Positions 8,414 to 59,463 of a DNA stretch of 64,000 nt are shown piece after piece. A model generated the notes under the pieces. The model worked only from the letters and a program-made list of their open reading frames with translations, was not told where the DNA came from and did not search any database. Numbering within the stretch: the stretch's first letter is position 1; each line of letters opens with the position of its first letter. Origin of the DNA: an uncultured Candidatus Saccharibacteria bacterium (GTDB lineage: Bacteria; Patescibacteriota; Minisyncoccia; 2-02-FULL-40-12). The stretch lies in contig CAYIZI010000001.1 of the NCBI GenBank assembly GCA_964368135.1, positions 42,926-106,925 on the forward strand. Reading direction: 5' to 3'. The position numbers and the translations under genes are program-made.

Positions 8414-9463
8414 TTACAAAACTTCAACCTCCACCAGCGGCCACGGACCAAAGTCGCCTTTGTGAAGAATCCCGGCTTTGGGACCGTATTGAGCCACTAC
8501 CGAAGAAGCATTAGCTGTGGCGAATTGGATTGATTTAGTGATATCGCCATTAGATAAAATGTATTGAGCAGTAAAACCTGAAACAAAAGCGTCGCCGGCG
8601 CCGGTGCGTTCAACTTTCGGCGAATCCGGTGTCCCAGCCCGATAAATATTTTTCTTATCTGAAACCAAAACTCCTTTTGGCCCGAGCGTCAAAACCACAA
8701 TCCCCTTCACCAGCTTATCCAATTCTTTTAAAACATCTTCTTTGGTCATTCCTCCATTAGAGTTTGACTGGTCATTGGGATTTGTAATTTGGGATTTTAG
8801 CAAGCTTTTTGCTTCTTCCAAATTGACGCTGAAAATATCAACCTCCGTCAGATAAGGTCTTAAATTCTCTAACCCATTAGCTATCTCTTTTCCGCCAGGA
8901 TTAAAAGCAATTTTAAAATTCCTGGTACTAATATATTCAAATGCTTTTTGTAATAAATCCAAGTTCCCGCCCAGACTGCCTAAAAAAAACCACTTGGCTT
9001 TTAATTTTTTCCATTTAATTTCCTGAAGATTAAGATGTTGACCCTCGCCTTTGTAGCTTAAAATAGTTCGTTCAGCATTTGGATGGACTAAGATAACCGA
9101 GTAAGCGGTGTAATCATCTTTATGAGTCACAAAAAATAGCTTAACTCTTTCTCGTTTTAACTCTTTAATCACCTCTTTTCCGTTAAAATCATTGCCAACC
9201 ATACTGACACAGCCGGTCTTAAGGCCTTGCCTGGCAAAAGTTACGGCTGTATTGGTTGCTCCACCGCCGGTGGTAAAAACAACCTCTCTTATTTCAATCT
9301 TCGCGCCCAAAGGAAAACACTGCTCCACACCGGTCGGCGAATCAGCCCGGCCTTCACTTGCACGCAAGTGAGGGCCGTGCTTGCGGATTTCAAAACCCTC
9401 GCTTTTCAAAAAGACATCGCGGGTAGCCGAACCAATCGTAATAATATCTAATATACTAAACAT
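8414..9463 (-). CDS. PfkB-family carbohydrate kinase (ribokinase-like)
   Basis: N-terminal IGSATRDVF, TGGGATNTAV, and the C-terminal TGAGDAFVSGF anion-hole motif. Confidence 0.75.
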   Translation of the reverse strand: MFSILDIITIGSATRDVFLKSEGFEIRKHGPHLRASEGRADSPTGVEQCFPLGAKIEIREVVFTTGGGATNTAVTFARQGLKTGCVSMVGNDFNGKEVIKELKRERVKLFFVTHKDDYTAYSVILVHPNAERTILSYKGEGQHLNLQEIKWKKLKAKWFFLGSLGGNLDLLQKAFEYISTRNFKIAFNPGGKEIANGLENLRPYLTEVDIFSVNLEEAKSLLKSQITNPNDQSNSNGGMTKEDVLKELDKLVKGIVVLTLGPKGVLVSDKKNIYRAGTPDSPKVERTGAGDAFVSGFTAQYILSNGDITKSIQFATANASSVVAQYGPKAGILHKGDFGPWPLVEVEVL

Positions 9464-12560: not shown

Positions 12561-12950
12561 TTAAAAACTGATCGCTATCCTCAAATTATGAGTTCCGGCA
12601 ATGGTGTGGGCAACGGTTATGGCAACAGGCAACAGATACCACAGTTTGTGGTCTCTTTTCTTCATTTCATAGCTAGCATAGAACACCCCGGCGTCGACAG
12701 ATCCTTGAACCACATAGAGCCACGGCTTCCCTGCTTCTACAAAAGGTCTCATCAAGGGATTTAGCTCTCGGCCATTCTCATGCCTGCTAAAGGCAAAATA
12801 GGTGCTCTCCACGTCATAAATTGTGGAGCCGATCATAAGGGAATTCACGGTCCAGAATTTACTGTCGGCCACTTTTTCTTGCGTCTGGGCAAATGCCATA
12901 GAGCCGATCAGTAGTAAAAAAATGCTCAAAATCAGTGTTTTCTTCGGCAT
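12561..12950 (-). CDS. Hypothetical exported/membrane protein
   Basis: 129-aa ORF with a signal peptide (LILSIFLLLIGSMAFAQT) and an ELNPLMR motif. Confidence 0.45.
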   Translation of the reverse strand: MPKKTLILSIFLLLIGSMAFAQTQEKVADSKFWTVNSLMIGSTIYDVESTYFAFSRHENGRELNPLMRPFVEAGKPWLYVVQGSVDAGVFYASYEMKKRDHKLWYLLPVAITVAHTIAGTHNLRIAISF

Positions 12951-13006
12951 TTCCTTCCGCCTTTCTTTTTAAACTGCTAATATATATTATACCACTAAAC
13001 GCCAAA

Positions 13007-20465: not shown

Positions 20466-21143
20466 TCATTCATTTCTTCCTCGCTCGTGAATATCATCTA
20501 CCCAGCGGCAGTAATCGCATTTTTCATGCTTGTCCGGTATTGGACCAGCCAGTAAACTGATTGCCTTGTAAAATAACTCTTTGGCGTTTTCTTTTGATGT
20601 CTCTATCCTCTTTGGTATTATATCAAATTCTATCAAATTGTTGCTGTGGATTTTTAAGGGCGCGAAAAAGACCAGGTAGCCGATATCTTTGGTCGGATAG
20701 CCGTTTTCGTCCAAAAGCCAGGTGTAAATATTAAGCTGATTTTGATGAAAGATATGGGAATCATCCCTGATTTCACCTTTTGATTTGTAATCCAAGGGTA
20801 AAAAGCGGTTGTCTTCAGAAACAAGGCAATCGTCCAAAGCACTAACTAACTTTGTATCGGCTTTTTTGTCAATAAAACTTAAACCGGTCCGCCAATTCCG
20901 CCATTTTTTCAAAAGCTCCTGGTTATCCATCAACCGATCTTCAACCAAGTTCTCAAGCTGGGGCGGCAATTTACCTTTGGCTCGGAAACCGTCAAAATAA
21001 CTTTTAATCAAAAGATCCATCTTGGTGTAAAGCGGCATCGGGATGCCCTGGGGCCGCCTGACTCTTTCTTTTACTTGTAAATAAAAACAGCGCGGACACT
21101 CGTTGAACAAAGCTAAACTTGAAGCGGATAAAATAGTCATCAA
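20466..21143 (-). CDS. PD-(D/E)XK nuclease, Cas4-like (four-Cys cluster)
   Basis: N-terminal ECPRCFY and C-terminal KCDYCRW cysteines. LPLDYKSKG (D/ExK) and QLNIY (QxxxY) motifs. Confidence 0.6.
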   Translation of the reverse strand: MMTILSASSLALFNECPRCFYLQVKERVRRPQGIPMPLYTKMDLLIKSYFDGFRAKGKLPPQLENLVEDRLMDNQELLKKWRNWRTGLSFIDKKADTKLVSALDDCLVSEDNRFLPLDYKSKGEIRDDSHIFHQNQLNIYTWLLDENGYPTKDIGYLVFFAPLKIHSNNLIEFDIIPKRIETSKENAKELFYKAISLLAGPIPDKHEKCDYCRWVDDIHERGRNE

Positions 21144-32261: not shown

Positions 32262-33482
32262 CTATAATGCTTCTTCGGTGTAAATATTGGCCGGGTTCCA
32301 GAGCATAAAGCCGCGGTACTGTTCGGCATCTTCTCCGCCAAAAGCATCAATCACCGCCTGAATCTGGGCCTGGACTTTTTCAACGTCATAATCAGCGCCA
32401 AGGTCAAAATCCTGAAGCCAAGGCCGCAAAGAAACACTGGCCTTGCTATTATTTAATCTAACCAAAGCCGCATCCATTGACTTGCGAACCACTTCATAAG
32501 GATATTCGGCCGGTTTTCTCTGTCCTTCGGAGGCGATTCCCGTGCCTTCGGCACGTGAACCTTCGCCTGAACCTGGCGGGTCAAGAAACGACAGCGGGAA
32601 ATGGGACGGATAAAGCATCGGTGAAACAAAATCAAAATAATCATAGGCATCTTCAATCATCTGGCCGACTCCAAAATCATAAAAAGTGTCGGCGGCCAAA
32701 CCGAAAAGGTCTACTGAAAGCGTCGCGTCAGGCATTTGGCGCCGAATCTCTTTGTAAAAATCTTTTATCACTAAACTCATCAGCCGTTTGCCGTCCCAAA
32801 CCGGAAACTTTCGGTCGTCCAAATCGCCATCGGTCGGAAAACGGATGTAGTCAAAATTTATCTCGTCAAAGCCGCGGTCCCAGGTATCGCGGGCAATTTT
32901 AATATTGTAATCCCATGAGACGCTGGCCGCCGGGTCAATCCAAGCCAAACCTTTGTAATCGCGCCAAATATCGTCGGAGGCAGTAGCACTTTCGCTCAAC
33001 TTTATGCTTTTAACCGCCAGCTCTGGCCGAGCCGCAGCTAAAACTGGATCCTGAAACACCGCGAGCCGGGCAATGACATAAATATTTTCATCATGAAGCC
33101 GCTTGATTAAAGCATTGGGTCTCGGGAAAAGATACGTTTTACCGGAAAAATCTTTTATGTCTATGACCACCGCGTTTATTTTCCCGGCCCGGGCCAAATT
33201 TATCACCTCCTGAATCTTGGCTTCTTTGCCGCCTGACCAGCCGGTCAAATAAATTGCTCTCACCACCTTTGGCGGGTCTTCAATTTGCTTTTGCGCTTCA
33301 ATATCCGGAAGAAAAGCGGTTCTTAAAACTGTTGGTAAAGGAGTAGCCGGAGTTGGAGAAACTAAAGATTCGGCCTCGGATAATGAATTTTCCACCTCAA
33401 TCATTCTACCGGGCAGATAAAAGAAAAAAAATCCGACTGCGGCCAGAGCCAAAATTATTAAGATCAGAATCAGAAACTTCAC
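32262..33482 (-). CDS. Putative glycoside-hydrolase-like TIM-barrel protein (DUF4015-like)
   Basis: Signal anchor, VRAIYLTGWSGG, AVVIDIKDFSG, EINFDYIRFP. Carries an in-frame hairpin repeat at 32531-32568. Confidence 0.45.
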   Translation of the reverse strand: MKFLILILIILALAAVGFFFFYLPGRMIEVENSLSEAESLVSPTPATPLPTVLRTAFLPDIEAQKQIEDPPKVVRAIYLTGWSGGKEAKIQEVINLARAGKINAVVIDIKDFSGKTYLFPRPNALIKRLHDENIYVIARLAVFQDPVLAAARPELAVKSIKLSESATASDDIWRDYKGLAWIDPAASVSWDYNIKIARDTWDRGFDEINFDYIRFPTDGDLDDRKFPVWDGKRLMSLVIKDFYKEIRRQMPDATLSVDLFGLAADTFYDFGVGQMIEDAYDYFDFVSPMLYPSHFPLSFLDPPGSGEGSRAEGTGIASEGQRKPAEYPYEVVRKSMDAALVRLNNSKASVSLRPWLQDFDLGADYDVEKVQAQIQAVIDAFGGEDAEQYRGFMLWNPANIYTEEAL

Positions 33483-46370: not shown

Positions 46371-49300
46371 TTACTTACTGATTATTGATAAAAACGCCTT
46401 GCTTGTTTTACTCCAGTCAAAATTACTGGCCCATTTTACTGCTTCCTGGCTCATCCGGTCGCGGAGATCCTTGTCTCGAATTATCGTTAAGATACTCTCC
46501 GCGAATGCATCGCTATTGCCGTAAGAAACAAGGCGGCCAGTTTCCATATTTTTCACAGAATCCCTTAAGCCCGGTACGTCAGAAGCCACTATCGGGGTGC
46601 CGCAAGCATTGGCTTCAATCGTGGTAATGCCCCACCCTTCCATAAACGAAGGATTTACAAATACCCAGGCTTTTTGAAAAAGTTCTATTTTCTCTTTTTC
46701 AGAAACCTTTCCTCTAAATACTACTTTGCCGTTAAGATTAAGTTCAGAGGCTAATCTTTTTAACGAATTTTCTTCTTCGCCGCTGCCGACAATGACCAAC
46801 CGGGCATCATCAACTTGTCTTATAACCTTTTCAAAAGCTCTTACTAAAACATCAACCGACTTATAGGCTTTAAGCCTTCCCAAATAAAGAATAGTCGGTT
46901 CCGGACTCTTTCTCCCAAGAGTTAAATTTTTAGAATTGACTCCGGGATGGACTATTTCAATTCCTTTCTTAGTTCCAAGGCCAAAACTCTGAATATCTTT
47001 TTTGCTTGATTCCGAAACCGTAATAAACTTTACATTCCGGTAGACTATGGGCATCAAATCCTTCTCTAAAAATATTGCCAGCTTTGCTAAGGGTTTAGGC
47101 AAAGAATGCCTGAAGACTTCCTGATGGATATGATGGATAAGACAATAAATCGGCTTCCTTGAATAGATGGGCGTAAAAAAAGGAATGCCGTTATGACAAT
47201 CAACTATGATGTCATATTTGCCTCTGAATTGGGTCAGGTAGTAAATAAAAGCCCAGAGGTAAACAAAGTAAAACCCGCCTCTTCTTATGATTTCAACCCC
47301 ATCTATAATTTCTCTTCTCTTTGAATAACTGTCATTGCCGCAAAAAACAGTGACCTGGTGTCCATCCTTGACCCACTGTTTGGCGATTTCGTGGACATAA
47401 AGTTCTGCTCCGCCACCATATATATGCCTTGTGTCTCTCCAGTTAAATATAAGAATCCTCTTGCCGAGCTTCGCCATCGGAGCCTCGGTTTCAATAGGTC
47501 TAAACGCATCTTTCAAATCAATAATGCCCCTCCAGACAAACTTAAGCCTGCCCTCAAGTACGTGGAATAAATAAACCAGGCCCAACCCAAAGATGCTGGC
47601 CCATAAAATAACATTGACTATCTCTTCGACGCTGCCGTGATTTAGGATTATGCCGATAGACATAAACAATGAAGCAGTCATTGAAATAATCGGGAATATA
47701 AATTGCCTTTTAGCCAAATGATAGACGACTATAGAATTTGAAATCGTGAAAACAGTAAGCGCGAGAGTGTAAATATTAAGATAAGGCAGAATGGCCAGCG
47801 TCTTGGAGCCAAAAAGTATCGGCACGGTTAAATTGCCCAGAGGGCCCAAAAAAATAAACCCGGCTAATGACAAAAGGACGGTTGAACCAACCAGCAGCTC
47901 AAATGTCTTTTTAGTATTTCTCTTTAATCCCTCGTCTCGGCCAATCAAAGTAATCATAAATATATTGGGCAGAGAGCCGAGAAAATATATCATCTTGCCG
48001 ACAAGCGATATTAGAGTGTACTCGCCGGCCAAACGCGGCGATAAAAAGTGTTTGACTAAAATAATGTCAATGCTTAAAAATATCGTCGCCGACATTAAAG
48101 TAAGTATTGAGGCGTAGAAAAACCTGCCCGGAAACTTATGGTTTTTAGTCTGAATAAAATCTTCAGAATGCCTTGAAACAGCCAAAACAGAAGCCATTGA
48201 AGCAACCGCTATGGATATCGGAATTGAAAGATAAACTAAATGATTTAACCCATACCAGGCGAAAAGAGCCGCCGCAATAAACTTACTTACTGATTCAAAA
48301 AGAATAACGAAAGCAACACTGGTAAAGTAAAGATTGCCATTAAGAAACCCCCTGTTTGCCGACGCAATCACTCCCAAAGTCAGAACCGGAGTGAACATAA
48401 AAAGGATGGACTGGCTGCTTATGTTAAAGAAATTAGAAAGGAATGAAACTGAAACTATCCACATTACCGATATGCCTAAGGCAATAGGAATTGCTTTGTT
48501 CAAAGTTGATTTGAGAAACGCAAGCGCCGACCCCTCACCCTTTTCAACGGCCAGATGAGCAGTCTTATGGTTTACCGTTGAGGAAACCGCGCCCATAAAT
48601 ATCGCCGCTACTGACCATAAAGTATTAACCAGTATCACTAGACTAAGTTCTTCAAAAGACAAAACCCTTCCCAGGAAAGCGTTAAAAAGAAAATTAAGGA
48701 AATTGGCGAACATCATCGCCGCAATCATAAGCGCCGCTCCCGAAAGAGCATTTTCGGTCAGCGATAACGGCAAAAATTTATTAGTGGTTTTTTTCAGCCA
48801 AGAATCTTTCTTTATAAAATTAAGAGTCAATTCAGGTTTCGGGGCCGGTCCCGATTTTATCGTCCCTAAAACAGGTAAGGGTTTTAATTTCTTTAAATGC
48901 AGGCCGTGCTTGGTCTTTTCCCAGAAATGCGGCTTAATGAAAAGCTGGTAAGTTGCCATTACCGCGGCAATACTCATAAAGAACCAATAGAAAGGTATTA
49001 AAAAGACATATTTTATTATTGGCCAGTGGCCCCTTTTGGCACAGCCGATCATGTAATAGTAAAAATAGAGAAAATTCCCGAAGACCAGAGAAAAAACGGC
49101 GATATAAAAGACCGGGGTCGGATATATTGATTCTATGGTCGGACCGACAACGGAACGCAGGGCGAAATAAGAGATCGTCATAAACCACAAAATTGGATTT
49201 ATAAGCATAAAGACAATTTTGCCGCCGATGTTAAGCTGGAAAAGAAAAGTATGGATGCCGCTTTTTTTCAAAAATTCCATCGGCTTTCTCATATGAACCA

Positions 49301-51047
49301 GATATGTCTGCATATAGCCCTTAATCCACCTTGACCTCTGCCTTATCCAGTTCCAAACCTGACTATTTGCTTCTTCAAGAGTTATTGAATCAATAATCGC
49401 CGTGTTGAAACCCTGTTTAAATAACCGCACCCCCAAGTCGGCGTCTTCGGTAACGTTGAAGGGATCCCAACCCTTAAGATTCCTTAAGTCGGCGGTCCGG
49501 AAATGGTTGCTGGTGCCGCCAAGAGGAATTGAAGTATTAATTGACTGAAGACCCGGCAGAATGATTTCAAACCACAACGAGTACTCGGCCGTAAAAAGCC
49601 GGGTCAAAAGATTTTGATTGGTGTTATAATAATTGAGTTTTGCCTGAAGACATTTAACTTTTTCTGGCACTCTTTGAAAAGCCAAATAAGCTTTCTTAAG
49701 CTGCTGGGGTTCGGGCATATCTTCGGCGTCGTAAACGACAAGATACTCACCCTTGGCTGAATTAAGACCATAATTGCAGGCCTTGGGCTTGGTCTTAGGC
49801 AAAGAGTGAGGAACGATTACTATCCTTACGTAGCTTGGCAAATCTATTGACCTGGCAGTATCTATTGTCTCTAAGTCGTTTTCTTCTAAAAGCAGCTGGA
49901 CATCCAATTTATCCTTAGGCCACTCCAATTTGCTTATTGAATTTAAAAATTTTGGAAGAACCGCTGATTCCCGATAAAGCGGGCAGAGAATCGCATAAAC
50001 CGGCAGAGAACTTTCGTCTATCCGGGAAAGTTCCTCATCAGTAAAACTAAGTTCCGGAGGATTATGCAGACTTTTTGTGATAAGGAATAAATTAAACAAA
50101 ACGTCAAAAAAGTATAGAGAGCTTAAAACAGCCATTAAAGCTATGGCCGTATAGAGCGGGAAAAATAAAAATCCGGCAACAGCCAAAATAACGGATAGAA
50201 ATATTAAAAATTTCTGGCTGGCGGTAAATGTGATTAGGGCCGAGGTTTCACTGTCAAGATTAGAATGAGTAATGAACCTTCTGCCTTTATGGGCCATTCC
50301 GGCGCCGATCATACTTGATTCGTCTTGCGGCGGTATTTGAATCGGCTTTTTCTTTTTTAACTTGTTGGCCAACGCGTTAGTGCCTATTTCCCAACTGGCT
50401 TTTATGACATTGATTTTTGATTCACCGGAATGCCTCTTTTCAAAATCTATATTAACGGTGGCTATTTCATGGCCGGCGTATCTGGCGTTAACCAAGAATT
50501 CCAGATCAAAGGTCCACTGGGACGGATTAACTGCTATTTCCTTGGTTATCTGTTTTTTAAAAACTTTTAACCCTGACTGGACATCGCACTTAAGCCCGTG
50601 AAGAATCCGGCCAAAAACAAAATTAAAACCTTTGCTGGCCAGCTTTCTTAAGGGGCTTATGCCTTTATAACGTCTATTGGCCACAACTACGCCGGCGCCA
50701 TCTCTAATTTTTCTCACCATTTCCGGTATCGCTTCCGGCGGGTACTGCAGGTCAGCGTCAATCATCCCGACAGTGTCATACTTGGCATAATCAAAACCCT
50801 CAAGAATAGAAAAGGCCTTACCCTTTTTGCCTTTCTTCAAATGACAACTAATTGGATATTCGTCGGCCAGATTATTGGCAATCTTAACCGTATTATCGGT
50901 TGAGTGGTCATCTATTGTGACTATTTCATACTCAATACCGCCTTTTTTTAAAGCATTATCAATCCTCTTGACTAACTTCTGGATATTTCCTTCTTCATTA
51001 AAAGTAGGAATAATTATTGATACTTTTTCAGTGTTTTTGGCCTCCAT
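46371..51047 (-). CDS. 1558-aa multidomain glycan-assembly protein: GT2 (polyprenyl-phosphate-sugar-synthase-like) + processive GT2 + MOP/Wzx-like flippase + GT4
   Basis: aa 8-230: IIIPTFNEE, DDHSTDNT, DADLQYPP. aa 347-585: YDAED, TEDADL, QRSRW. aa ~765-1165: about 12 TM helices with a polysaccharide-biosynthesis/flippase-like N-terminus. aa 1196-1558: EGWGITTIEANACGTPIVASDVPG. Confidence 0.8.
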   Translation of the reverse strand: MEAKNTEKVSIIIPTFNEEGNIQKLVKRIDNALKKGGIEYEIVTIDDHSTDNTVKIANNLADEYPISCHLKKGKKGKAFSILEGFDYAKYDTVGMIDADLQYPPEAIPEMVRKIRDGAGVVVANRRYKGISPLRKLASKGFNFVFGRILHGLKCDVQSGLKVFKKQITKEIAVNPSQWTFDLEFLVNARYAGHEIATVNIDFEKRHSGESKINVIKASWEIGTNALANKLKKKKPIQIPPQDESSMIGAGMAHKGRRFITHSNLDSETSALITFTASQKFLIFLSVILAVAGFLFFPLYTAIALMAVLSSLYFFDVLFNLFLITKSLHNPPELSFTDEELSRIDESSLPVYAILCPLYRESAVLPKFLNSISKLEWPKDKLDVQLLLEENDLETIDTARSIDLPSYVRIVIVPHSLPKTKPKACNYGLNSAKGEYLVVYDAEDMPEPQQLKKAYLAFQRVPEKVKCLQAKLNYYNTNQNLLTRLFTAEYSLWFEIILPGLQSINTSIPLGGTSNHFRTADLRNLKGWDPFNVTEDADLGVRLFKQGFNTAIIDSITLEEANSQVWNWIRQRSRWIKGYMQTYLVHMRKPMEFLKKSGIHTFLFQLNIGGKIVFMLINPILWFMTISYFALRSVVGPTIESIYPTPVFYIAVFSLVFGNFLYFYYYMIGCAKRGHWPIIKYVFLIPFYWFFMSIAAVMATYQLFIKPHFWEKTKHGLHLKKLKPLPVLGTIKSGPAPKPELTLNFIKKDSWLKKTTNKFLPLSLTENALSGAALMIAAMMFANFLNFLFNAFLGRVLSFEELSLVILVNTLWSVAAIFMGAVSSTVNHKTAHLAVEKGEGSALAFLKSTLNKAIPIALGISVMWIVSVSFLSNFFNISSQSILFMFTPVLTLGVIASANRGFLNGNLYFTSVAFVILFESVSKFIAAALFAWYGLNHLVYLSIPISIAVASMASVLAVSRHSEDFIQTKNHKFPGRFFYASILTLMSATIFLSIDIILVKHFLSPRLAGEYTLISLVGKMIYFLGSLPNIFMITLIGRDEGLKRNTKKTFELLVGSTVLLSLAGFIFLGPLGNLTVPILFGSKTLAILPYLNIYTLALTVFTISNSIVVYHLAKRQFIFPIISMTASLFMSIGIILNHGSVEEIVNVILWASIFGLGLVYLFHVLEGRLKFVWRGIIDLKDAFRPIETEAPMAKLGKRILIFNWRDTRHIYGGGAELYVHEIAKQWVKDGHQVTVFCGNDSYSKRREIIDGVEIIRRGGFYFVYLWAFIYYLTQFRGKYDIIVDCHNGIPFFTPIYSRKPIYCLIHHIHQEVFRHSLPKPLAKLAIFLEKDLMPIVYRNVKFITVSESSKKDIQSFGLGTKKGIEIVHPGVNSKNLTLGRKSPEPTILYLGRLKAYKSVDVLVRAFEKVIRQVDDARLVIVGSGEEENSLKRLASELNLNGKVVFRGKVSEKEKIELFQKAWVFVNPSFMEGWGITTIEANACGTPIVASDVPGLRDSVKNMETGRLVSYGNSDAFAESILTIIRDKDLRDRMSQEAVKWASNFDWSKTSKAFLSIISK

Positions 51048-51146: not shown

Positions 51147-51614
51147 TTAGAGGTTTGGCCTGAATTCAAGACGATGAAACTTATGGCCATTATACTGGCC
51201 TGGCTCATCCAGCAGTTGAAAGCCATTTTTTATGTAAAAATCTTTCACGCCGTACTCGTAAAAAGAAGTTGTCCGTAAAATTTTAAAGCCATTTTCCCGA
51301 GCAAATTGTTTGGCAAACTCAATTAGCCTTGAACCGACTCCCTTGGCCTGCCCCCCACTTGCGGGCAAGCGGGGGGCCTGAATATCTTTGGCCACAGCCA
51401 ATGTTTCAATATAAAGCATCTTGTTTCTTTCTCTTAAACTCATTACTCCGGTTGTTTTACCATTCTCTTCGCTTAAATAATACTCCCCTTTCTCAATTTG
51501 CTTCCTAATAAATTTTTCGGTCGTCCACACAAAATCAGGTATCTCTAAATAAAGAACTTGGGCTATTTCAACGACTCTTTCTACATCTTCAGAAACTGCT
51601 TTTCTTATACTCAT
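51147..51614 (-). CDS. GNAT-family N-acetyltransferase
   Basis: 155 aa. IETLAVAKD...QAKGVGSRLIE (Q/RxxGxG acetyl-CoA motif). C-terminal NGF..L fold pattern. Confidence 0.75.
   Translation of the reverse strand: MSIRKAVSEDVERVVEIAQVLYLEIPDFVWTTEKFIRKQIEKGEYYLSEENGKTTGVMSLRERNKMLYIETLAVAKDIQAPRLPASGGQAKGVGSRLIEFAKQFARENGFKILRTTSFYEYGVKDFYIKNGFQLLDEPGQYNGHKFHRLEFRPNL
51345..51380. repeat. 24-nt GC palindrome flanked by the 6-bp direct repeat ggcctg, in frame inside the GNAT gene
   Basis: ggcctg | ccccccacttgcgggcaagcgggg | ggcctg. The gene strand encodes Q A P R L P A S G G Q A. Confidence 0.85.
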
Positions 51615-52159
51615 TTCTTTAATCTATCCTTGAACTTTTTTCTGAATTTTTCCAGCTTCGGATTAATCACTGCCTGGCAATAAGGCGCCTCTGGATTATG
51701 GGAATAATAATCCTGATGATATTGTTCGGCCGGGTAAAATTTATCAAGCGGCACAATTTCGGTAACGATTGGTTTTTCAAATTCACCCGAATCACCCAAC
51801 CGCTTCTTTGACTCCTCGGCCAACCTCTTTTGTTCATCATCATAGTAAAAAATCATTGACCGATACTGATGACCCACATCCGGCCCCTGGCGGTTTACTT
51901 GGGTCGGATCATGAGTCGCCCAGAAAACTTCCAGTAAATCTGCATAAGAAATCTTTTCCGGGTCATAAGTTATCTGAATGGCTTCGGCATGGCCGGTTCG
52001 GCCGCCGGAAACTTTTTCGTAAGTTGGTTTTTCTTTACCGCCGCCAGCATAACCGTTCTCAACTAAAACTACGCCTTCAAGTTCCTCAAATATTGCCTCT
52101 CCGCACCAAAAACAGCCGGAGGCAAAAGTCGCTTTTTCAAAATTTTTATTTTCACTCAT
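51611..52159 (-). CDS. msrA: Peptide-methionine (S)-S-oxide reductase
   Basis: ATFASGCFWCGEAIF active-site motif, GHAEAIQITYDP, YHQDYY. Confidence 0.9.
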   Translation of the reverse strand: MSENKNFEKATFASGCFWCGEAIFEELEGVVLVENGYAGGGKEKPTYEKVSGGRTGHAEAIQITYDPEKISYADLLEVFWATHDPTQVNRQGPDVGHQYRSMIFYYDDEQKRLAEESKKRLGDSGEFEKPIVTEIVPLDKFYPAEQYHQDYYSHNPEAPYCQAVINPKLEKFRKKFKDRLKK

Positions 52160-52702: not shown

Positions 52703-53179
52703 TTAACGAGTGACTTCGATTATTTGTCCAAGCTCAGCTGAAGGCGCACTAATTGTAACCCTTCCAGCTGAATCAACTTCTAAATCATAGCCAGTATCGT
52801 CTCCTACTGCTGATGTTGGATCTGTAGGAAATGACGGAACGTATGTTGGTGTAAGGCAAGAAAGATCAATATCTCCTGCCACGGCACCAGAAGTAACAAT
52901 ATCGACTGCCGAACCGGCAGCTGGAAGCGATGGACATGTATATGTAGTGCCGCCGATTGTGAATGAACCGCTGAAAATTCCTTTATTATCAGCAATCCTT
53001 TGGCCAACTGAGTTCAAAATAGTGTTAGCATTACTGGTTCTCTGGGTATTTCTGCCTTGGGCAAACTGTCTGGCTGGGTTTATGGCGATCAAGACAATAG
53101 TTGCTAAAATAGCAATAATCCCGATAACTACCAGAATTTCAATAAGGGTAAAGCCCCTATTTTTTCTTTGATTTTTCAT
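52703..53179 (-). CDS. pilA: Type IV pilin (prepilin with class III signal peptide), probable major subunit
   Basis: MKNQRKNRG/FTLIEILVVIGIIAILATIVLIAINP: canonical G/F cleavage site and Glu+5. Own promoter-like signal and AGGAG SD. Last gene of the operon. Confidence 0.8.
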   Translation of the reverse strand: MKNQRKNRGFTLIEILVVIGIIAILATIVLIAINPARQFAQGRNTQRTSNANTILNSVGQRIADNKGIFSGSFTIGGTTYTCPSLPAAGSAVDIVTSGAVAGDIDLSCLTPTYVPSFPTDPTSAVGDDTGYDLEVDSAGRVTISAPSAELGQIIEVTR

Positions 53180-53239
53180 AATCTCCTGATTTTTTAAACT
53201 ATATCAATTTATCGACCTGATTTTTAAAGATAAAGAGAG

Positions 53240-53266
53240 GTTATAATGGGATATGGGTCTTGTCAA
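53240..53266 (-). promoter_or_regulatory. Candidate promoter for the major pilin gene
   Basis: The minus strand reads TTGACA (53266-53261), 15 nt, TATAAC (53245-53240). AGGAGA SD before the ATG. The spacer is shorter than optimal. Confidence 0.35.
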
Positions 53267-53269
53267 TAT

Positions 53270-53731
53270 TTATGGAAAATTTCCTATCTCTTCCCAAGAT
53301 TCAACTTCTATTTTGCCAAATGGTTTTGAAACAATTATTTCAAGATTAGTATAGGAACTTTTATTGCCGTCTTGAGGGTATTTGCCTTGAACTTGGATTG
53401 TCTTAGTCCCAGAGCCGGATATTGAATAAATAATACATGAATCATCACCAACCGGAATAGTTTCGCCAGGCGGCGAAAGCGAGTAATCATTAAATTCGTC
53501 ATCATTTAGCGCCTGTAATTTTAAAATCGCGGTGTCGGCGCAGGCCTCGGCCAAGCCAATGCTTTTTTCCTTAAACTCTGAATCAAGAACATTTATCCTG
53601 GCGAAAAAACTGCGAAAGCCCAAAGCAAAAGTAATAGTCATCAAAATAATGGCAATAATGACCGTAGAAATCAAAGCAATATAGCCGTTTTTATTTCCGG
53701 ATAAATTTGGTGGTCTCATAATAAAAATCAT
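53270..53731 (-). CDS. Minor pilin-like protein lacking Glu+5 (PilX/GspK-like position)
   Basis: SGNKNG/YIALISTVIIAIILMTITFAL hydrophobic N-terminus without Glu at +5. Overlaps the upstream gene by 41 nt. Confidence 0.45.
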   Translation of the reverse strand: MIFIMRPPNLSGNKNGYIALISTVIIAIILMTITFALGFRSFFARINVLDSEFKEKSIGLAEACADTAILKLQALNDDEFNDYSLSPPGETIPVGDDSCIIYSISGSGTKTIQVQGKYPQDGNKSSYTNLEIIVSKPFGKIEVESWEEIGNFP

Positions 53732-54209
53732 TTAAGTAAAAGTTGGTCTTGACTGCTGGGGGCTGGCCAGTGGCTGAAGGAGGAATATACTCAAAGCTCA
53801 AAGTGGCGGCTTTTACGCTATCGCTGTCTAAGGCCAAAAAAACTCCTATCCCTGGATCAATCTCAATATTTTCGTTAACCAATCTAAATTTGACTCGTTG
53901 GGATAAACCATATTTATCAACTGACAGTTCATCCCCTTCTGGCGGGATAATTATTGGAGTTGGGTTTGATAAATCTATTCCAGTCAACGCCCAATTTATT
54001 TTCCGCAAAACAAAGTTGGCCTCGTCGCTGATTAAAACCTTAATGTTGGAACGGTCGGTTGCTTCAATAACTGAATAAACCGAAACAATCACTCCGGCCA
54101 TTAATAGAGAAAAAAGAGCTATATATATTAGCACTTCAATAATGGTAAATCCATTTTCGTGACTAAATTTAGACATCAGAAAATCAATTGCAAACTGGTG
54201 ATGGTTCAA
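53691..54209 (-). CDS. Pseudopilin/minor pilin with prepilin N-terminus
   Basis: SHENG/FTIIEVLIYIALFSLLMAGV. Confidence 0.65.
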   Translation of the reverse strand: MNHHQFAIDFLMSKFSHENGFTIIEVLIYIALFSLLMAGVIVSVYSVIEATDRSNIKVLISDEANFVLRKINWALTGIDLSNPTPIIIPPEGDELSVDKYGLSQRVKFRLVNENIEIDPGIGVFLALDSDSVKAATLSFEYIPPSATGQPPAVKTNFYLNDFYYETTKFIRK

Positions 54210-55785
54210 TAATCCGCAGTTTGCTTTGTTGGTTAGTTACTGTGTAGATAACGTCGTTCTCATAAGCAAAGTTTTGCGGGTCTACTGAAAAGTTATAGGG
54301 ACAGGTATCCCATCTCTCAATATTGGCCGGATCACTTACATCTAAAACAAGAAAGGGGTCGTTGGGATCTCTTGTTGTAACAAAAGCTAACTGTCCTGAA
54401 ACTTTAATGCCGGTAATGCCCGCACCCTGGTTATAATTAAAAAAATCATTAAAGTTTACTGACCCAGGAGCAGAAGATAAGTCGTTAGTATCAACAACGT
54501 AAAAATCTCGGTCATTCCCTGGATTTGAACGTCCTATTCCAAGATAAATTTTATTTCCAATAACATATAAATCTCTCCCGTCTTTTGAACTTGCCGAACC
54601 GTCGGCTCTTTCCGCATCAAAGGTACCGGCAATAGTTATATTTAAAGGATTGGCTATATTAAGAACGATAATTTCCTCGTTATTAGAAGAAGTGGCAAGA
54701 TAGGCCCTATCCTCTCTTACTTCAATATCATTGATATTATGATCTACTTGGGTAGAGCCTGTATTCCCAAGGTGAACGGGGTTTGTTGGATCAGTTACAT
54801 CAAAAATGTGAAACTCCGAACCGCCAACTCTATGGGTACCTATATAAATGCGGTTATTGTAATAAGCAATGCTTCGTCCGCCGGGACAAGTAAAATTACA
54901 AGTTCCACTTACTCCGGGTAAAGACACAGAAGCAATTTGAATAGGCGCCGCGGGGTCAGTCACATCAATTACCTGGAGTTGGCCGCTGGCTTTTTCATTG
55001 CCGCTGCCACTGCCGTCATCCGGATCGTAAAAATCTCCGTGGATACTGGCCGCAAAAATATAACGTTTATTTAACGATTGAAAATCAACGGCCACTAAAT
55101 CAACAATCCCGTTTAGTTTTTTACCTGGTCCCCAATCCACCCCGATACTCCCTAAAAAAACTGGGTTTGAAGTATTAGCCGCATCATAAATAAATAGGTC
55201 ATCTAAATTTTCATTAGAATCATAGACCCCTAAGTAAACAATCTTATTCAGGACGGCAATACTTTCACCGTTAACAGTATTTATAATAATATTGTCGTGA
55301 TTGGTTACGGGATTCCTCCAATTATCATTTGACGGAGATATTATGGAACAATTACTGCCAGCATCAATAAAAGCTTTTAGACTGCCGATAATACTAGAAA
55401 TACTTATTGATTGAGGCCTGTTTTCCACATCCCAATCAATAGTACTTTTAATTTCTTTGACACAGGGAGAGATATCTAATACTTCTAAAGTTTTAGTGTA
55501 AATGTCAGTCGTAGTCGGAGTTGTAGAAATAATGGAGTTAAATTCTCCGACTGTACCACGAGATTGAGCTCGAGTATTCTCAAGTTCCTCTTGAGCAAAA
55601 TACAAAGCTTCCTGATTTGTCTCGGTGTCTATTTCGGTTGACTGACCGCCAAACAAAACCATTATCACCGCGGAAATCGTCAAAACGAAAATAAACATCG
55701 CAATCATAATTTCCATTGTGGTCAGACCGCTTTCTAACCCGCTCTGGCGCTTAAGTTTCTTAGTAATTGATCCGGCCTTGTTCAT
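54184..55785 (-). CDS. Pseudopilin N-terminus fused to an LVIVD-repeat beta-propeller
   Basis: LESG/LTTMEIMIAMFIFVLTISAV. Then repeated strands LFIYDAANTSNPV, LQVIDVTDPAAPI, FHIFDVTDPTNPV, IIVLNIANPLN, FYVVDTNDLSS, FLVLDVSDPANI. Confidence 0.65.
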   Translation of the reverse strand: MNKAGSITKKLKRQSGLESGLTTMEIMIAMFIFVLTISAVIMVLFGGQSTEIDTETNQEALYFAQEELENTRAQSRGTVGEFNSIISTTPTTTDIYTKTLEVLDISPCVKEIKSTIDWDVENRPQSISISSIIGSLKAFIDAGSNCSIISPSNDNWRNPVTNHDNIIINTVNGESIAVLNKIVYLGVYDSNENLDDLFIYDAANTSNPVFLGSIGVDWGPGKKLNGIVDLVAVDFQSLNKRYIFAASIHGDFYDPDDGSGSGNEKASGQLQVIDVTDPAAPIQIASVSLPGVSGTCNFTCPGGRSIAYYNNRIYIGTHRVGGSEFHIFDVTDPTNPVHLGNTGSTQVDHNINDIEVREDRAYLATSSNNEEIIVLNIANPLNITIAGTFDAERADGSASSKDGRDLYVIGNKIYLGIGRSNPGNDRDFYVVDTNDLSSAPGSVNFNDFFNYNQGAGITGIKVSGQLAFVTTRDPNDPFLVLDVSDPANIERWDTCPYNFSVDPQNFAYENDVIYTVTNQQSKLRIIEPSPVCN

Positions 55786-56275
55786 TGATGGTTATGGTTA
55801 AGGGAGGTTTACCCACGCTAATCAGAGTAATCTCAAGCGGCGCCGCCGCTACATTCCCAGTCAGCTGCTCAAAATTTATAATCCCGGACCAGGCTATCCC
55901 TAATCTTTCTATCGGGATACTTTCATTGCTTGGATCATTTGGAACGTAAACTGAACCTTCAAAAATTACAAGCTCTTTTTTAGCGTCATCATAATAAACG
56001 CTGTAAGACGACTGATTAATATTGCTGACGGCCTGATTCCTGGCTTTCTGCAAAATACTTATCACTATATCTTTGTCGTAATTAAAAGAATAGGTTCGGT
56101 AAAAATCCATACTCAAAAAAAGGCCGATGCCCATTAGCAGAACCAAAATACCGATGGCAACCAGAATTTCAATAATAGAGAATCCGTTACTACGCCGGCC
56201 GGCTAAATTAAGGCGAGAGGTTCCTGGTAATTTCATAAATCGGGGTAATGATTGAAACAGCAATAAAGCCGACAA
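55760..56275 (-). CDS. Pseudopilin (GspH/FimT-like) with prepilin N-terminus
   Basis: RRSNG/FSIIEILVAIGILVLLMGIGL. The true start may be the internal ATG at 56236. Confidence 0.65.
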   Translation of the reverse strand: MSALLLFQSLPRFMKLPGTSRLNLAGRRSNGFSIIEILVAIGILVLLMGIGLFLSMDFYRTYSFNYDKDIVISILQKARNQAVSNINQSSYSVYYDDAKKELVIFEGSVYVPNDPSNESIPIERLGIAWSGIINFEQLTGNVAAAPLEITLISVGKPPLTITINEQGRINY

Positions 56276-57278
56276 TCAAACCCATAAACACCATCAAAGC
56301 CGGCTCAAGGATCGTAGATAAATTCTTAGTCAGTTCGTCCATCTCGGCCTCATACATTTCGGCCAGATAAAGTAAAGTTTCATCCAAGCGGCCGGTTGAT
56401 TCGCCGATTTCAATCAAATGAGTCAAAATATGCGGGAAAAGGTCTGGCCTTCTTTCCATCTGACTGACTATTTTTTCGCCCTTAACCACGCACTTTGAAA
56501 TCTTCACAAGTTCGTTTCGGTAGACCAGATTAGTGGTCGTCTGCGAGGCAATTAAAAAAGCATTAATCACTCTGATGTCGCTTTTGATCAAAATTCCAAG
56601 GGTCCGGCAAATATTGGCCAAGTGATAATTCTTGAATATCGGACCAATCAAAGGCATTTTAAAGCTGGCCAGGTGCAGAAGATAGCGAAACTTATCCGAA
56701 GTCCTAAAAAAAACAATTAAACCAACCGCCAAAACAATAATCCCGGCAACTAAAAACAACCCATAGGCCTTCAAAAAATCAACGCTGGCAATCAGGGCCC
56801 GGGTAGTAAGGGGCAGGTTCACATTCAAACTGGCGAAAATCGGCAAAATCTTCGGGAAAATATAAAGAGTTAAAAGGCCGGCCAAACCTAAAGTAGCAAT
56901 AATTATAAAAATCGGATAAACCAGCGCGCCCATCACTTTACGCTGCAGGGCCTGCTTTTTCTTCATCTCATCGGCCAAATAGTTCAGGTTCTCGTCCAGA
57001 GTACCGCTCTCTTCGCCGACCCGAATCAAATTAATGGCCAGCTGGTCAAAGTTATGCCGAAACTTAGCCAAACTGCTTGAAAGATACTGACCGTTGGAAA
57101 CGTCTTTAATCACCTGGTCAAGAACCAATGACTTGGCGCCCGATGGACTTTGTTTTCTTAAAATATTTAAACTCTGGAGCAAGGGCACGCCGGCCTTAAC
57201 CAAAAAAGACAGCCGCTTGGCAAAAAGGGTTTTCTCTTTTACGGAAATTCTGGTAAATAACTCTCTTAATCTACTCAT
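56208..57278 (-). CDS. pilC: Type IV pilus platform protein PilC (T2SS F family)
   Basis: Two T2SSF repeats (FAKRLSFLVKAGVPLLQSL...; LANICRTLGILIKSDIRV...), three TM segments. Ends ITPIYEITRNL. Confidence 0.85.
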   Translation of the reverse strand: MSRLRELFTRISVKEKTLFAKRLSFLVKAGVPLLQSLNILRKQSPSGAKSLVLDQVIKDVSNGQYLSSSLAKFRHNFDQLAINLIRVGEESGTLDENLNYLADEMKKKQALQRKVMGALVYPIFIIIATLGLAGLLTLYIFPKILPIFASLNVNLPLTTRALIASVDFLKAYGLFLVAGIIVLAVGLIVFFRTSDKFRYLLHLASFKMPLIGPIFKNYHLANICRTLGILIKSDIRVINAFLIASQTTTNLVYRNELVKISKCVVKGEKIVSQMERRPDLFPHILTHLIEIGESTGRLDETLLYLAEMYEAEMDELTKNLSTILEPALMVFMGLIVGFIAVSIITPIYEITRNLSP

Positions 57279-58503
57279 TGATCACTCTCAAAACTTCCTC
57301 CAGAGTGGTAATGCCTTCTTTGGCTTTCCTGATGCCGTCCTCAACTATAGTGGTCATCCCATTGCCGGAAGCGATTAACTTAATCTCATTGGCCGAAGCC
57401 CTCCTTAAAAAAGCTTCTCTGACCATATTGTCTACAACCATCACTTCAAATATGCCGACTCGGCCCTGAAAACCGGTCTCGCCGCATTTCTCACAGCCCC
57501 TGCCGTAATAAAACTGCCAGTTGGAATCTGAACCCAAAACCGAATTCTGGAAAAAATTTTCCAAGCTCTTCTTTTCGGCGTCGGTCAGCTTTCTTAAAGT
57601 TTTGCATTTGGGGCAAATTTTCCTGACCAATCTCTGGGCAATGGCCAAGTTGACCGTTGAAGCAACCAGGTACGGCTCAACTTTCATATCTAATAATCTG
57701 GGCAAAGTGGTGGCCGCGTCATTGGTATGCAAAGTGGACAAAAGCAGGTGGCCGGTTAAAGCGGTGTTGACAGCTAAGGCCGCGGTCTCAACATCTCTGA
57801 TTTCGCCAACCATTATTATATCGGGGTCCTGCCGTAAAATTGACCTTAGTCCGTTGGCAAAGTTTAAGCCGACCCGGGAATTAACCTGAATCTGTTCAAT
57901 TCCTTCAACCGCGTATTCAATCGGGTCCTCCACCGTGACAATTGAAACATCTTTGTTGTTTAAAAATTTTAAAACGGTGTAAAGAGTGGTGGTTTTGCCA
58001 GATCCGGTCGGTCCGGTGGCTAAAATCATGCCGTGACTTTTTTTGGCGGCCCTCAAAACCTTTTCCTTGTCTGACGGACTAAAGCCAAGTTTATCCAAAG
58101 TGTATTCTTCTTCCTTATCTGATAAAAGACGCAAAACCGCGTTCTCGCCGTAATAGGTTGGAGCTACGGAAACGCGAATATCAATCGGCGCCTGCCCGTC
58201 AAAAGCAATACTGAACCGGCCGTCTTGAGCAGTCTGGTGTTCGTCAGTCCTTAAGTTTGATAAAATTTTAATTCTGGAAACCACCTCTGATTTGATTTCT
58301 CTTGGAAAAGTAAAAAAATCCTGCAAAACGCCGTCAATTCTAAACCTGATTCTGACTCCCTTTGTGCCCGGGTCAATATGAATATCCGAAGCCCGCGAGT
58401 TGTGGGCGTATTCTATTAAGTTGTCCACCAGGCTGATTAAGGAAATCTGTTCAGAGTTTTGCTCAATTTCCCGCTCAATTTTATTTCTTAGTTCTGTTGA
58501 CAT
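57271..58503 (-). CDS. pilB: Type IV pilus assembly ATPase PilB (GspE family)
   Basis: Walker A GPTGSGKTTTLY, Asp box, Walker B DPDIIMVGEIRD, His box GHLLLSTLHTNDA, tetracysteine CPKC...CEKC. Confidence 0.85.
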   Translation of the reverse strand: MSTELRNKIEREIEQNSEQISLISLVDNLIEYAHNSRASDIHIDPGTKGVRIRFRIDGVLQDFFTFPREIKSEVVSRIKILSNLRTDEHQTAQDGRFSIAFDGQAPIDIRVSVAPTYYGENAVLRLLSDKEEEYTLDKLGFSPSDKEKVLRAAKKSHGMILATGPTGSGKTTTLYTVLKFLNNKDVSIVTVEDPIEYAVEGIEQIQVNSRVGLNFANGLRSILRQDPDIIMVGEIRDVETAALAVNTALTGHLLLSTLHTNDAATTLPRLLDMKVEPYLVASTVNLAIAQRLVRKICPKCKTLRKLTDAEKKSLENFFQNSVLGSDSNWQFYYGRGCEKCGETGFQGRVGIFEVMVVDNMVREAFLRRASANEIKLIASGNGMTTIVEDGIRKAKEGITTLEEVLRVINE

Positions 58504-58614: not shown

Positions 58615-59181
58615 GTATAGGCCAATAAACGCAGCCAGGGTGTTAAAAACGATATTGCCTAAAGTCATCGGAATCATCAGCCGCCAGTAAGGATAGTGAA
58701 TAAAACCAAGGGGCATGACCACCAAATCATCAGGCAGAGGGATAAAAGCGCCGTAGCTGAAAATGGCCAGACTGGCCAGCCACTTGGGATGAGACAAAGA
58801 CCATTCATAAGCCCGGTCAATGGTTTTTTGAATTCTTGAAGGGATAATTTCCCGGCCATGATATGCAATAACATAAGAAGTTGAATCACCCAAGAAAAGG
58901 CCGATGCCGGCCACAAAACCCAAAAGAAATGGGTTTAACCCGCCGGCGGCAAAAGTCATCACAAAGAGATAATAAGGAATCGGAACAAAGGTTGAGATGC
59001 CGCCCAAGAAAGCCAAAACAAAGGTAATCAAATAGCCGTTTCGGACGCCCAGAATCTCAATAATGTCAGCCGGCGGAATCCGGTAAATAAAAACTGTCCA
59101 GGCGACAAAAAGAGCAATCAGGATTAAAAAAGGAAATTGGGCTTTACTAACTATCCCCCGCACCTTTTCTGAATAGGTCAA
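58597..59181 (-). CDS. YqaA/DedA-like (VTT-domain-like) membrane protein
   Basis: 194 aa, TTG start. FLGGISTFVPIPYYLFVMTFAAGGLNPFLLGFVAGIGLFLGDSTSY. Both gene ends lie inside the repeat copies. Confidence 0.5.
   Translation of the reverse strand: MTYSEKVRGIVSKAQFPFLILIALFVAWTVFIYRIPPADIIEILGVRNGYLITFVLAFLGGISTFVPIPYYLFVMTFAAGGLNPFLLGFVAGIGLFLGDSTSYVIAYHGREIIPSRIQKTIDRAYEWSLSHPKWLASLAIFSYGAFIPLPDDLVVMPLGFIHYPYWRLMIPMTLGNIVFNTLAAFIGLYTPHLF
59156..59174. repeat. Inverted 19-bp copy of the repeat core
   Basis: ccccgcaccttttctgaat is the reverse complement of attcagaaaaggtgcgggg (58595-58613 and 59441-59459). Encodes residues 3-8 of the membrane protein. Confidence 0.95.
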
Positions 59182-59435
59182 GACGACAAACTGCCGAGTA
59201 TTCTTCTCTTAAGCTGAGAATATACTTTACCGAACTGTTTCAGTTTTTTCTCACGGTTTCTGACGTCTTGACCGTTTAGATAACCTTCACAATAAACTAA
59301 CTTCCAAGGAATGAAAGCTTTAGTCGACCGATTATATCCTAAATTATGTTCTCTTATCCTTTTTAAAATATTAGTTGTTATGCCAATATATAATTTCTTG
59401 TTTTTATCGCTTTTCAATAAATAGACATAGAACAT
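59178..59435 (-). CDS. Small stand-alone GIY-YIG nuclease-family protein (85 aa)
   Basis: MFYVYLLKSDKNKKLYIGITTNILKRIREHN...PWKLVYCEGY...RNREKKLK. Only the last 85 codons of track ORF 59178-59765 are credible. Confidence 0.75.
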   Translation of the reverse strand: MFYVYLLKSDKNKKLYIGITTNILKRIREHNLGYNRSTKAFIPWKLVYCEGYLNGQDVRNREKKLKQFGKVYSQLKRRILGSLSS

Positions 59436-59460
59436 AATAAATTCAGAAAAGGTGCGGGGT
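59430..59460. repeat. 31-bp direct repeat, copy 2
   Basis: Identical to 58584-58614. Contains the GIY-YIG start codon and begins 3 nt after the stop of the 345-aa gene. Confidence 0.95.
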
Positions 59461-59463
59461 TCA

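Follow-up and report, generated by a model that had tools for sequence, protein, structure and literature searches.

The window examined here, a stretch of 64,000 nucleotides from an uncultured Candidatus Saccharibacteria bacterium, contains a gene for a GNAT family N-acetyltransferase into which a GC-rich palindrome appears to have been inserted in frame, just ahead of the motif for coenzyme A (CoA) binding. With a probability of about 0.7, this feature is one copy of a family of mobile 26-nt palindromes, inserted with a 4-bp target duplication and moved in trans. The family consists of tiny GC-rich palindromic repeats of the Patescibacteria, or Candidate Phyla Radiation (CPR), and is previously undescribed, as a literature search turned up neither the element nor any in-frame palindromes of CPR bacteria.

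The acetyltransferase insert and a second copy in a kinase gene

The GNAT gene (51147..51614, minus strand) codes for a protein of 155 aa and its start overlaps the stop codon of the upstream gene msrA (51611..52159). Its identity comes from the open reading frame (ORF) list, from Pfam matches to Acetyltransf_10 (1e-09), Acetyltransf_7 and Acetyltransf_1 and from an AlphaFold2 model. As given in the initial annotation, the plus strand at 51345-51380 within this ORF reads GGCCTG-CCCCCCACTTGCGGGCAAGCGGGG-GGCCTG and the gene-strand product D-I-[Q-A-P-R-L-P-A-S-G-G]-Q-A-K-G-V-G-S, the 30 nt placing the ten residues QAPRLPASGG ahead of QAKGVGS. The same annotation had considered the feature to be a 24-nt palindrome between perfect 6-bp direct repeats. 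The repeats are indeed perfect, with copies of GGCCTG (gene strand CAGGCC) at 51345..51350 and 51375..51380, but the palindrome is not, as it contains one A.C mismatch (G.U in the mRNA), and the maximal self-complementary stretch according to a hairpin scan and RNA folding is one of 13+2+13 nt at 51350..51377. When delimited from C-run to G-run, following a family consensus from 36 copies, the element is a 26-nt palindrome without strand, CCCCCCACTTGC GG GCAAGCGGGGGG (51351..51376), possessing 12-nt arms, a 2-nt centre and one mismatch. The minimal duplication abutting this element is CCTG (51347-51350 and 51377-51380), with the two G residues at 51375-51376 being assignable equally to the G-run of the element or to the right repeat.

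The GNAT insert is predicted to form an mRNA hairpin of 12 bp with a 4-nt loop (-25.8 kcal/mol). Its z-score is just -2.0 against shuffles of the same 46-mer, a modest value because shuffles of such a GC-rich sequence also fold well; three related copies have z-scores of -3.1 to -4.7. The GC content of the 24-mer is 79%, against about 41% for the window (36-47%). A repeat search that had been suggested for the 24-mer had a mixed outcome: no second match to CCCCCCACTTGCGGGCAAGCGGGG was found in the window at up to three mismatches (and none in 100 shuffles), but members of the same family were found in a PfkB gene of the window and among 49 loci returned by a genome scan. Further samples of well H51 of the Hainich aquifer yielded four contigs, assembled independently, in which the GNAT gene is identical base for base, which indicates that the insert is real DNA of a stable population and no assembly artefact.

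A search of 5.8 billion proteins identified 61 homologues of the GNAT protein, all of them from Patescibacteria-type metagenomes and mostly of 143-146 aa. Exactly the ten residues in question are missing from 25 of 27 aligned orthologues, which read ...LAVAKDI-QAKGVGS...; the prediction that removal of the insert would restore a Q-x-x-G-x-G motif is thus borne out to the residue. A motif scan detected the insert in just two of the 61 homologues, namely the window protein and P0003 (contig L001). The closest relative, P0002 (contig L002), is 80% identical and has the msrA-GNAT gene order conserved. Its empty site reads GATATT CAGGCA AAAGGT, with a single CAGGCA, and the filled site of the window GATATT CAGGCC (CCCCGCTTGCCCGCAAGTGGGGGG CAGGCC) AAGGGA. 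In P0003 the same insert is found at the same position with the same repeat, the centre being GG instead of CC and one arm base being different. As the reverse complement of one of these two elements differs from the other at a single position, the centre, or the entire palindrome, was flipped between the window and L001. The feature is settled to be an insertion, as initially proposed, and not an ancestral loop lost elsewhere, because it also belongs to a family that is repeated in other genes and genomes.

Structural modelling of the GNAT protein with AlphaFold2 (28-sequence alignment) gave a confident GNAT fold, with a mean predicted local distance difference test score (pLDDT) of 88.6 and a predicted template modelling score of 0.83, and the top Foldseek matches of the model are solved GNAT structures (E = 4e-10). 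Only residues 79-90 (QAPRLPASGGQA) have a pLDDT below 50. They lie between the strand of residues 66-74 (β4) and the helix of residues 93-107 (α3), and the β4-α3 motif (Q/R-x-x-G-x-G/A), here Q89-A-K-G-V-G94, remains intact right after the insert. The Q-x-x-G-x-G loop of GNAT enzymes binds the pyrophosphate of CoA. The model that had been proposed as a check therefore places the insert in a disordered β4-α3 loop, where it most likely loops out, and the intact ORF, the disordered loop and the retained motif suggest that the protein tolerates it.

The hairpin scan of the window also detected a second element with a GNAT-type core at 9348-9377, encoding HGPHLRASEGRAD. Its host is a 349-aa PfkB-family carbohydrate kinase (8414..9463, minus strand; PF00294 in all homologues, and an AlphaFold2 model), in which protein and DNA alignments delimit a 30-nt in-frame insertion at 9345..9374 (minus strand), with the gene-strand sequence CCCTCACTTGCGTGCAAGTGAAGGCCGGGC and the peptide GPHLRASEGR. 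The core common to the GNAT and PfkB copies is CCC[C/T]CACTTGC-NN-GCAAGTG[A/G]GGG. Here too the ten residues are missing from most of the aligned orthologues (29 of 31), including the closest one, the 91%-identical P0063. They are present at the same site in the 74%-identical P0072, and a motif scan found them in two of 120 homologues. At the DNA level, the empty site of L040 and L041 reads AAGCACGG|TGATTCG and the filled site of the window AAGCACGG(CCCTCACTTGCGTGCAAGTGAAGGCCGGGC)TGAT, exactly 30 bases having been added; the filled site of L042 reads AAACACGG(CCCTCACTTGCGTGCAAGTGAGGGCCAGGC)CGAT. Direct reading of the GNAT (L001) and PfkB (L042) inserts, each extended by three bases on either side, shows 30 of 36 positions to be the same. 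As in the GNAT model, the PfkB insert falls in a low-confidence AlphaFold2 stretch (residues 27-47).

Distribution of the repeat family

One genome for each of 185,579 species was scanned with the pattern CCYCRCTTGCNNGCAAGYGRRGG, which has 16 fixed and five two-fold positions and for which about nine matches would be expected in 596 Gb at uniform composition by our own calculation. The scan returned 49 loci, of which at least 32 come from 26 metagenome-assembled genomes (MAGs) of Patescibacteria, with up to five copies in one MAG. The hosts belong to the Saccharibacteria, Paceibacterota/Parcubacteria, Kaiser-, Wolfe-, Azam- and Zambryskibacteria. Patescibacteria are estimated to make up a few percent of the species and a far smaller share of the bases, so the enrichment of loci in this group is large. 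Matches outside the CPR are mainly of a CCCCGCTTGC..GCAAGCGGGG variant in high-GC terminators. The consensus from 36 copies is CCCCTCACTTGC NN GCAAGTGAGGGG, its arms being almost invariant and the central dinucleotide taking many values. A metagenome scan with the narrower pattern CCCCRCTTGCNNGCAAGYGGGG gave 35 loci, mostly high-GC terminator hairpins unrelated to CPR, with only L024 (Hainich) being relevant. No copies were found in viral contigs.

Several other identities were considered for the family and rejected. A CRISPR repeat is ruled out by the occurrence of single copies without an array, a DNA uptake sequence by whole-palindrome insertions that are polymorphic between orthologues, and an excision footprint with P-nucleotides by a palindrome that is unrelated to its flanks. 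An intein or intron is ruled out as the element is too short and has no catalytic features.

Copies were found in three kinds of location. The first is intergenic and terminator-like, examples being L024, where the copy lies between convergent genes, L062, where it has A-tract/T-tract flanks, and L048, where it directly follows the stop codon of SecA. Secondly, seven copies sit at the centre of longer palindromes. One of these cases is L052 (2033-2135), with a copy nested in a larger hairpin next to the apparent 3' end of a tRNA gene; its outer arms, CCCCCTCACTTGG...CCAAGTGAGGGGG, resemble the element itself, and the DNA fold has an energy of -45.8 kcal/mol (z = -9.8). In L083 (5622-5681) there is a copy within a copy, CCCCTCAC TTGC (26-nt copy) TTGC AC GCAAGTGAGGGG, which has a clean 4-bp duplication. 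The nested copies of L083 code for a repeated peptide, PLTCVQPLTCVQVRGQVRG, in the open frame, which lies either ahead of a gene for a sugar transferase or at its beginning.

The third location is within coding sequence. In addition to GNAT and PfkB, copies were identified in DnaE (L059; PHP and DNA_pol3_alpha domains), SecA (L066; the Wing/Scaffold match is split), a ParB_N protein (L072) and an 823-aa DUF4012 protein (L056). One common frame, P-H/R-L-x-A-S-E/G-G, is used by all six coding hosts that were verified, a rule that the palindromic nature of the element makes valid for either orientation. Direct translation shows that another frame of the element is also open (L-T-C-x-Q-V-R) and that the third contains TGA. 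In the coding copies that were checked, the added length is a multiple of three and the frame is free of stops, with the TGA frame being used in none.

In L051, two inverted copies (301-323 and 2542-2564), separated by 2.2 kb and identical over 20 nt or more of their flanks, enclose a gene with an NYN domain. The pair may represent an invertible segment or an inverted duplication. Further NYN genes adjoin copies in L080, and PfkB in L104.

Evidence for and against mobility

The abutting-repeat test was carried out on 36 independent copies, taking the element from C-run to G-run, a definition that was picked after inspection of the data. Six of the 36, against 0.59 expected, have a direct repeat of 4 nt or more that abuts the element exactly, and none of 5000 permutations of the right flanks reached six. 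The repeats are CCTG (GNAT), CGATG (L046), CGAAG (L054), TGGG (L056), CTTG (L066, SecA) and TTTA (L089). The sum of 26 and 4 nt equals the exact length of the GNAT insert and the apparent length in SecA and L056. The target-site duplication claimed in the initial annotation is supported by these family statistics and by the nested copy of L083, but in a revised form, as 26 + 4 (CCTG) fits better than 24 + 6 and the PfkB copy is not clean.

Under the preferred reading, a 26-nt element together with a 4-bp target duplication (CAGG on the gene strand) would account for the 30-nt GNAT insertion. The apparent 6-bp repeat could then consist of this duplication plus the next two target bases, because these (CC) happen to equal the first two bases of the element. 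Mobilisation would take place in trans through a sequence-specific enzyme encoded outside the window, the likeliest candidate being a transposase making short staggered cuts. Copies would go to the ends of genes, where a hairpin and T-run resemble a terminator, to the apexes of other hairpins including the element's own copies, and to coding sequence. Genic copies would presumably survive only where a multiple of three nucleotides is added, in a frame without stops and at a surface loop. These survivors would be translated, here as QAPRLPASGG in the β4-α3 loop just before the intact Q-x-x-G-x-G.

A number of observations weigh against this interpretation. No abutting duplication of at least 4 nt is present in 30 of the 36 copies, and a looser test, based on the longest substring shared at whatever offset, gave no significant result (P = 0.47 for repeats of 5 nt or more, 0.07 for 6 nt or more). 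The PfkB copy lacks a clean flanking duplication: if it is taken as a 26-nt element (GCCC...GGGC), its flanks are CACG / CAGG in L042 and CACG / CGGG in the window, so that at best two to three of four bases agree. As an empty PfkB orthologue reading CAC GCT GAC exists in L104, a decayed duplication at this site is possible from the sequences. In addition, four coding copies that are unrelated (GNAT, PfkB-L042, DnaE-L059 and ParB-L072) have CAGGC(C/T) directly after the G-run. This string could represent a tail of the element, a preferred target or the microhomology used in a templated insertion, and the GNAT "duplication" could accordingly be an element tail that matches the target. For DnaE of L059, comparison with the nearest relatives, which are no more than ~60% identical and differ in the length of this region, gave no clear insert boundaries and no decision on the CAGGC "tail"; the comparison of SecA in L066 with L048 had the same outcome. 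No transposase was found in the window by Pfam searches of about 45 ORFs, and an all-against-all comparison of the ORFs around 35 copies, with Pfam, revealed no transposase or other gene recurring beside them, the NYN-domain genes near two to three copies being probably a coincidence. No full-length parent element was found either, a search for half-sites bracketing an ORF giving nothing convincing, and 26 nt is far below the usual size of transposable elements of the miniature inverted-repeat type (MITEs; roughly 50-500 bp).

A further difficulty is that two sites are each filled in non-sister lineages, which would not be expected from simple random transposition. The trees of both genes (neighbour-joining, no support values) pair the window with an empty orthologue and place the second filled orthologue elsewhere. 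The copies at the same site share derived states, these being the CCCCCAC variant in the GNAT pair and the GT centre in the PfkB pair, which favours one origin per site. Judging from these sequences, one origin per site would require many precise losses. Loss of palindromes by replication slippage is established in E. coli, and it is plausible that slippage at a repeat-bracketed hairpin gave rise to precise losses here, with lateral exchange of alleles as the alternative.

A bolder version of the preferred reading is doubtful, though it should be mentioned. The element would here be a "nano-transposon" of two 12-bp ends and a 2-nt spacer, the smallest known mobile element to duplicate its target, active across the Patescibacteria, with a preference for hairpin apexes and with repeated landing at, or exchange of, the same codon. 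If true, it would regularly supply essential proteins such as DnaE, SecA and ParB with new surface loops of ten residues (PHLxASEG).

The rival that survives best, although it is unlikely, is a templated, microhomology-mediated insertion by copy-choice or gene conversion from another copy, in which the direct repeat would be no target duplication. The replisome or a repair polymerase would switch to an ectopic hairpin copy and return via a CAGGCC tail matching the native CAG GCC (Gln-Ala) of motif A. The recurrent CAGGC(C/T) after the G-run is in keeping with such a tail, as the last three of the four copies named above have no matching left flank, and so are a PfkB insert that is 30 nt long yet has no clean duplication and flanking repeats that vary in length from 4 to 7 nt. 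Short-tract transfer of alleles between co-occurring CPR bacteria could also yield the filling of the same sites in non-sister lineages. However, the nested copy of L083 has a clean TTGC duplication and element borders exactly at the C-run and G-run, and the excess of exactly abutting repeats is what integration at staggered cuts predicts. Moreover, no conversion tract is visible at the PfkB site, since the flanks of the window resemble those of the empty sister L040 and not those of the filled L042.

It is much less probable that the hairpin is kept for a function as an RNA or DNA structure, be it ribosome pausing, stabilising or terminating the transcript, or protein binding. The extreme form of this explanation is translational bypass with CAG GCC ... 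CAG GCC as take-off and landing codons, giving a protein without the ten residues. The arms are conserved from Saccharibacteria to Parcubacteria with a freely variable centre, several intergenic copies (L062, L024, L048) have terminator-like A-tract/T-tract flanks, and identical codon pairs surround a stable hairpin in GNAT, all of which would suit a functional hairpin. Against this, the multiple-of-three length and stop-free frame of all coding copies checked are a signature of read-through translation under selection and speak against bypass or removal, and the PfkB copy has no matched flanking codons. The patchy occupancy (2/61 and 2/120 homologues) argues against a conserved role at the GNAT and PfkB sites, and no Rfam family matches the element.

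The remaining readings, namely a hairpin made de novo on the spot (through template switching or slippage), an ancestral loop that most orthologues have lost, and an assembly artefact, appear effectively refuted by the sequence comparisons: short palindromes can arise through intrastrand template switching, and the flipped centre between the two GNAT copies shows that hairpin-driven rearrangement occurs here, but the same 20-26-nt sequence is present in unrelated genes and at least 26 other genomes and so did not originate at this site, the GNAT sequence on either side has no resemblance to the arms, the site is empty in 25 of 27 orthologues, the insert has 79% GC in a genome of 41%, and the allele is identical in the four assemblies.

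Related palindromes, known elements and significance

Comparison of positions 1-14400 of the window with the syntenic contigs L040 and L042 revealed several further indels that are strong hairpins of other sequence families, all of them multiples of three in length. One is a 27-nt in-frame insertion (7082-7108, in the ORF 6164-7441, minus strand) that encodes FAKASEGTA, reads CCCTCC TTCGCTAAAGCTTC GGAGGG and is absent from L040. Another is a 33-nt in-frame insertion encoding TPTSEVGAPTE (11742-11774, in a TrxB-like ORF at 11490-12554, minus strand), which consists of two adjacent GC-rich hairpins (-26.6 kcal/mol) and is found neither in L040 nor in L042. Palindromes inserted in frame thus seem to be a common feature of these genomes. 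L040 itself has two 54-nt in-frame nested, cloverleaf-like palindromes (9316-9369 and 1757-1810; e.g. VPIRKANRGSSISQSDIG), and a similar CCCGATTCGC...GCGAATCGAGGATCCTCGAT unit is found at about 14076-14130 of the window, in a PMT-family glycosyltransferase gene (12935-14404, plus strand).

The 14-nt core GAAGCTTTAGCGAA of the 7082-7108 insert recurs as its reverse complement in GNAT orthologues, constituting a second palindromic family. The GNAT family has a second insertion hot spot after the residues GEYYVA (L098 10001-10450, L099 1168-1653, L001 159-671), with inserts of 18-57 nt (VSFEALAK, VFSDLSAEASAQAGALAK, VSSDSAFVATSAKEVALAQ) that contain the GAAGCTTTAGCGAA core, some with further nested hairpins; the window GNAT is empty at this site. 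GC-rich, hairpin-coded ...ASEG... stretches also occur at 32480-32560 (GSRAEGTGIASEGQ; in a DUF4015 glycosyl hydrolase-like ORF, 32262-33482, minus strand) and at ~1830 (the C-terminus of L25; PSAKASEG), and these may be degraded relatives of the 26-nt family or of the second one.

Among other genes of the window, a 1558-aa ORF (46371-51047, minus strand) lies directly downstream of GNAT and has a family-2 glycosyltransferase at its N-terminus, then a long multi-pass membrane region and, at the C-terminus, a family-1/4 glycosyltransferase, and a cluster resembling type IV pilus or type II secretion systems is located at 52703-58503. The sole nuclease-like genes seen in the window code for a GIY-YIG protein (59178-59765) and a PD-(D/E)XK nuclease-family protein (20466-21143).

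The family can be compared with several known groups of palindromes. Rickettsia palindromic elements (RPEs) are palindromic repeats of about 100-150 bp, found intergenically or in frame in protein genes, whose peptide is predicted to be compatible with the fold (PMC10969869). Like these, the CPR repeats are selfish palindromes that occur both between genes and in frame in unrelated, often essential genes. However, RPEs add 30-50 residues and are found in Rickettsia, whereas here a 26-nt element makes a 30-nt insertion of ten residues in Patescibacteria with no sequence in common, and so the resemblance is functional only.

Repetitive extragenic palindromic sequences (REPs) lie outside genes by definition, and one of their ends is tagged with GTAG or CGTC (PMC3733652). 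The CPR family resembles REPs and REPINs, which are associated with REP-associated tyrosine transposases (RAYTs) of the Y1/HUH type, in being a multi-copy, GC-rich imperfect palindrome in the 20-40-nt range that often follows genes in a terminator-like manner. The element IS1397 inserts into REP loops, which is paralleled by the nested copies of the present element. Unlike REPs, its ends are C-runs and G-runs without GTAG or CGTC in the listed flanks, and copies lie inside the GNAT, PfkB, DnaE, SecA, ParB and DUF4012 ORFs. No RAYT flanked by family copies was found in the window or around the copies examined. A relative from Hainich H51 encodes, 3 kb from its GNAT orthologue, a 201-aa Y1_Tnp protein (PF01797, IS200/RAYT-type; L092 6813-7418, also L093 4322-4927). 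This gene has no flanking copies of the 26-nt family, another GC-rich hairpin (CCACACCCGTAAGGGTGTGG) lies upstream of it, and tblastn detected no homologue in the window.

MITEs, including Coxiella QMITE1 and cyanobacterial cases, are non-autonomous, multi-copy elements that are occasionally fused in frame to ORFs (PMC10969869, PMC5896051). The CPR element shares with them its terminal inverted repeats, the 12-nt arms CCCCTCACTTGC / GCAAGTGAGGGG being conserved over 36 copies, and, in a subset of copies that is statistically significant, a putative short duplication of the target. It differs in comprising only two 12-nt arms and 2 nt, which makes it several-fold shorter, and in that most copies have no recognisable duplication; nor was a parent insertion sequence found, the searches yielding no arm-bracketed ORF and no transposase in the window or recurrent near copies.

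Ribosomes skip the byp (bypass) elements of fungal mitochondria, the frame of which is not necessarily preserved. GC-rich hairpins are also known from the coding sequence of mitochondrial genomes (PMC6649704). The GC-rich palindromic clusters of fungal mitochondria and the coding palindromes of Nematomorpha mitochondrial DNA are similar to the CPR repeats as GC-rich hairpins invading AT-rich coding sequence. Unlike in byp, the frame is always preserved in CPR. All of these palindromes belong to organelle genomes and have no sequence relation to the bacterial repeats. With regard to bypass as in T4 gene 60 or byp, the inserts with known empty sites are exactly 30 nt and stop-free, and matched codons are found only in GNAT. 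As it fails at least one defining feature of RPEs, REPs/REPINs and MITEs, the family is assigned to none of them. What is new here, and supported, is the presence of RPE-, REP- or MITE-like selfish palindromic DNA in CPR bacteria, by a mechanism that is partly resolved.

The genomes of CPR bacteria are tiny, genetics in culture is not known to be available for them, and their mobile DNA is poorly understood. A conserved 26-nt palindrome that, if the reading is true, invades core genes in frame as well as hairpins between genes would account for part of the lineage-specific short inserts that complicate the alignment and annotation of CPR proteins. It could also serve to mark recent changes of the genome and to type strains in time series from aquifers, and would point to a sequence-specific DNA enzyme common to the radiation. 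The GNAT protein offers a natural 10-residue loop insertion beside a CoA-binding loop, the effect of which is testable. On a wider scale, the family would extend the phenomenon of selfish DNA within genes, as in Rickettsia, to a far smaller element and to an unrelated lineage with reduced genomes.

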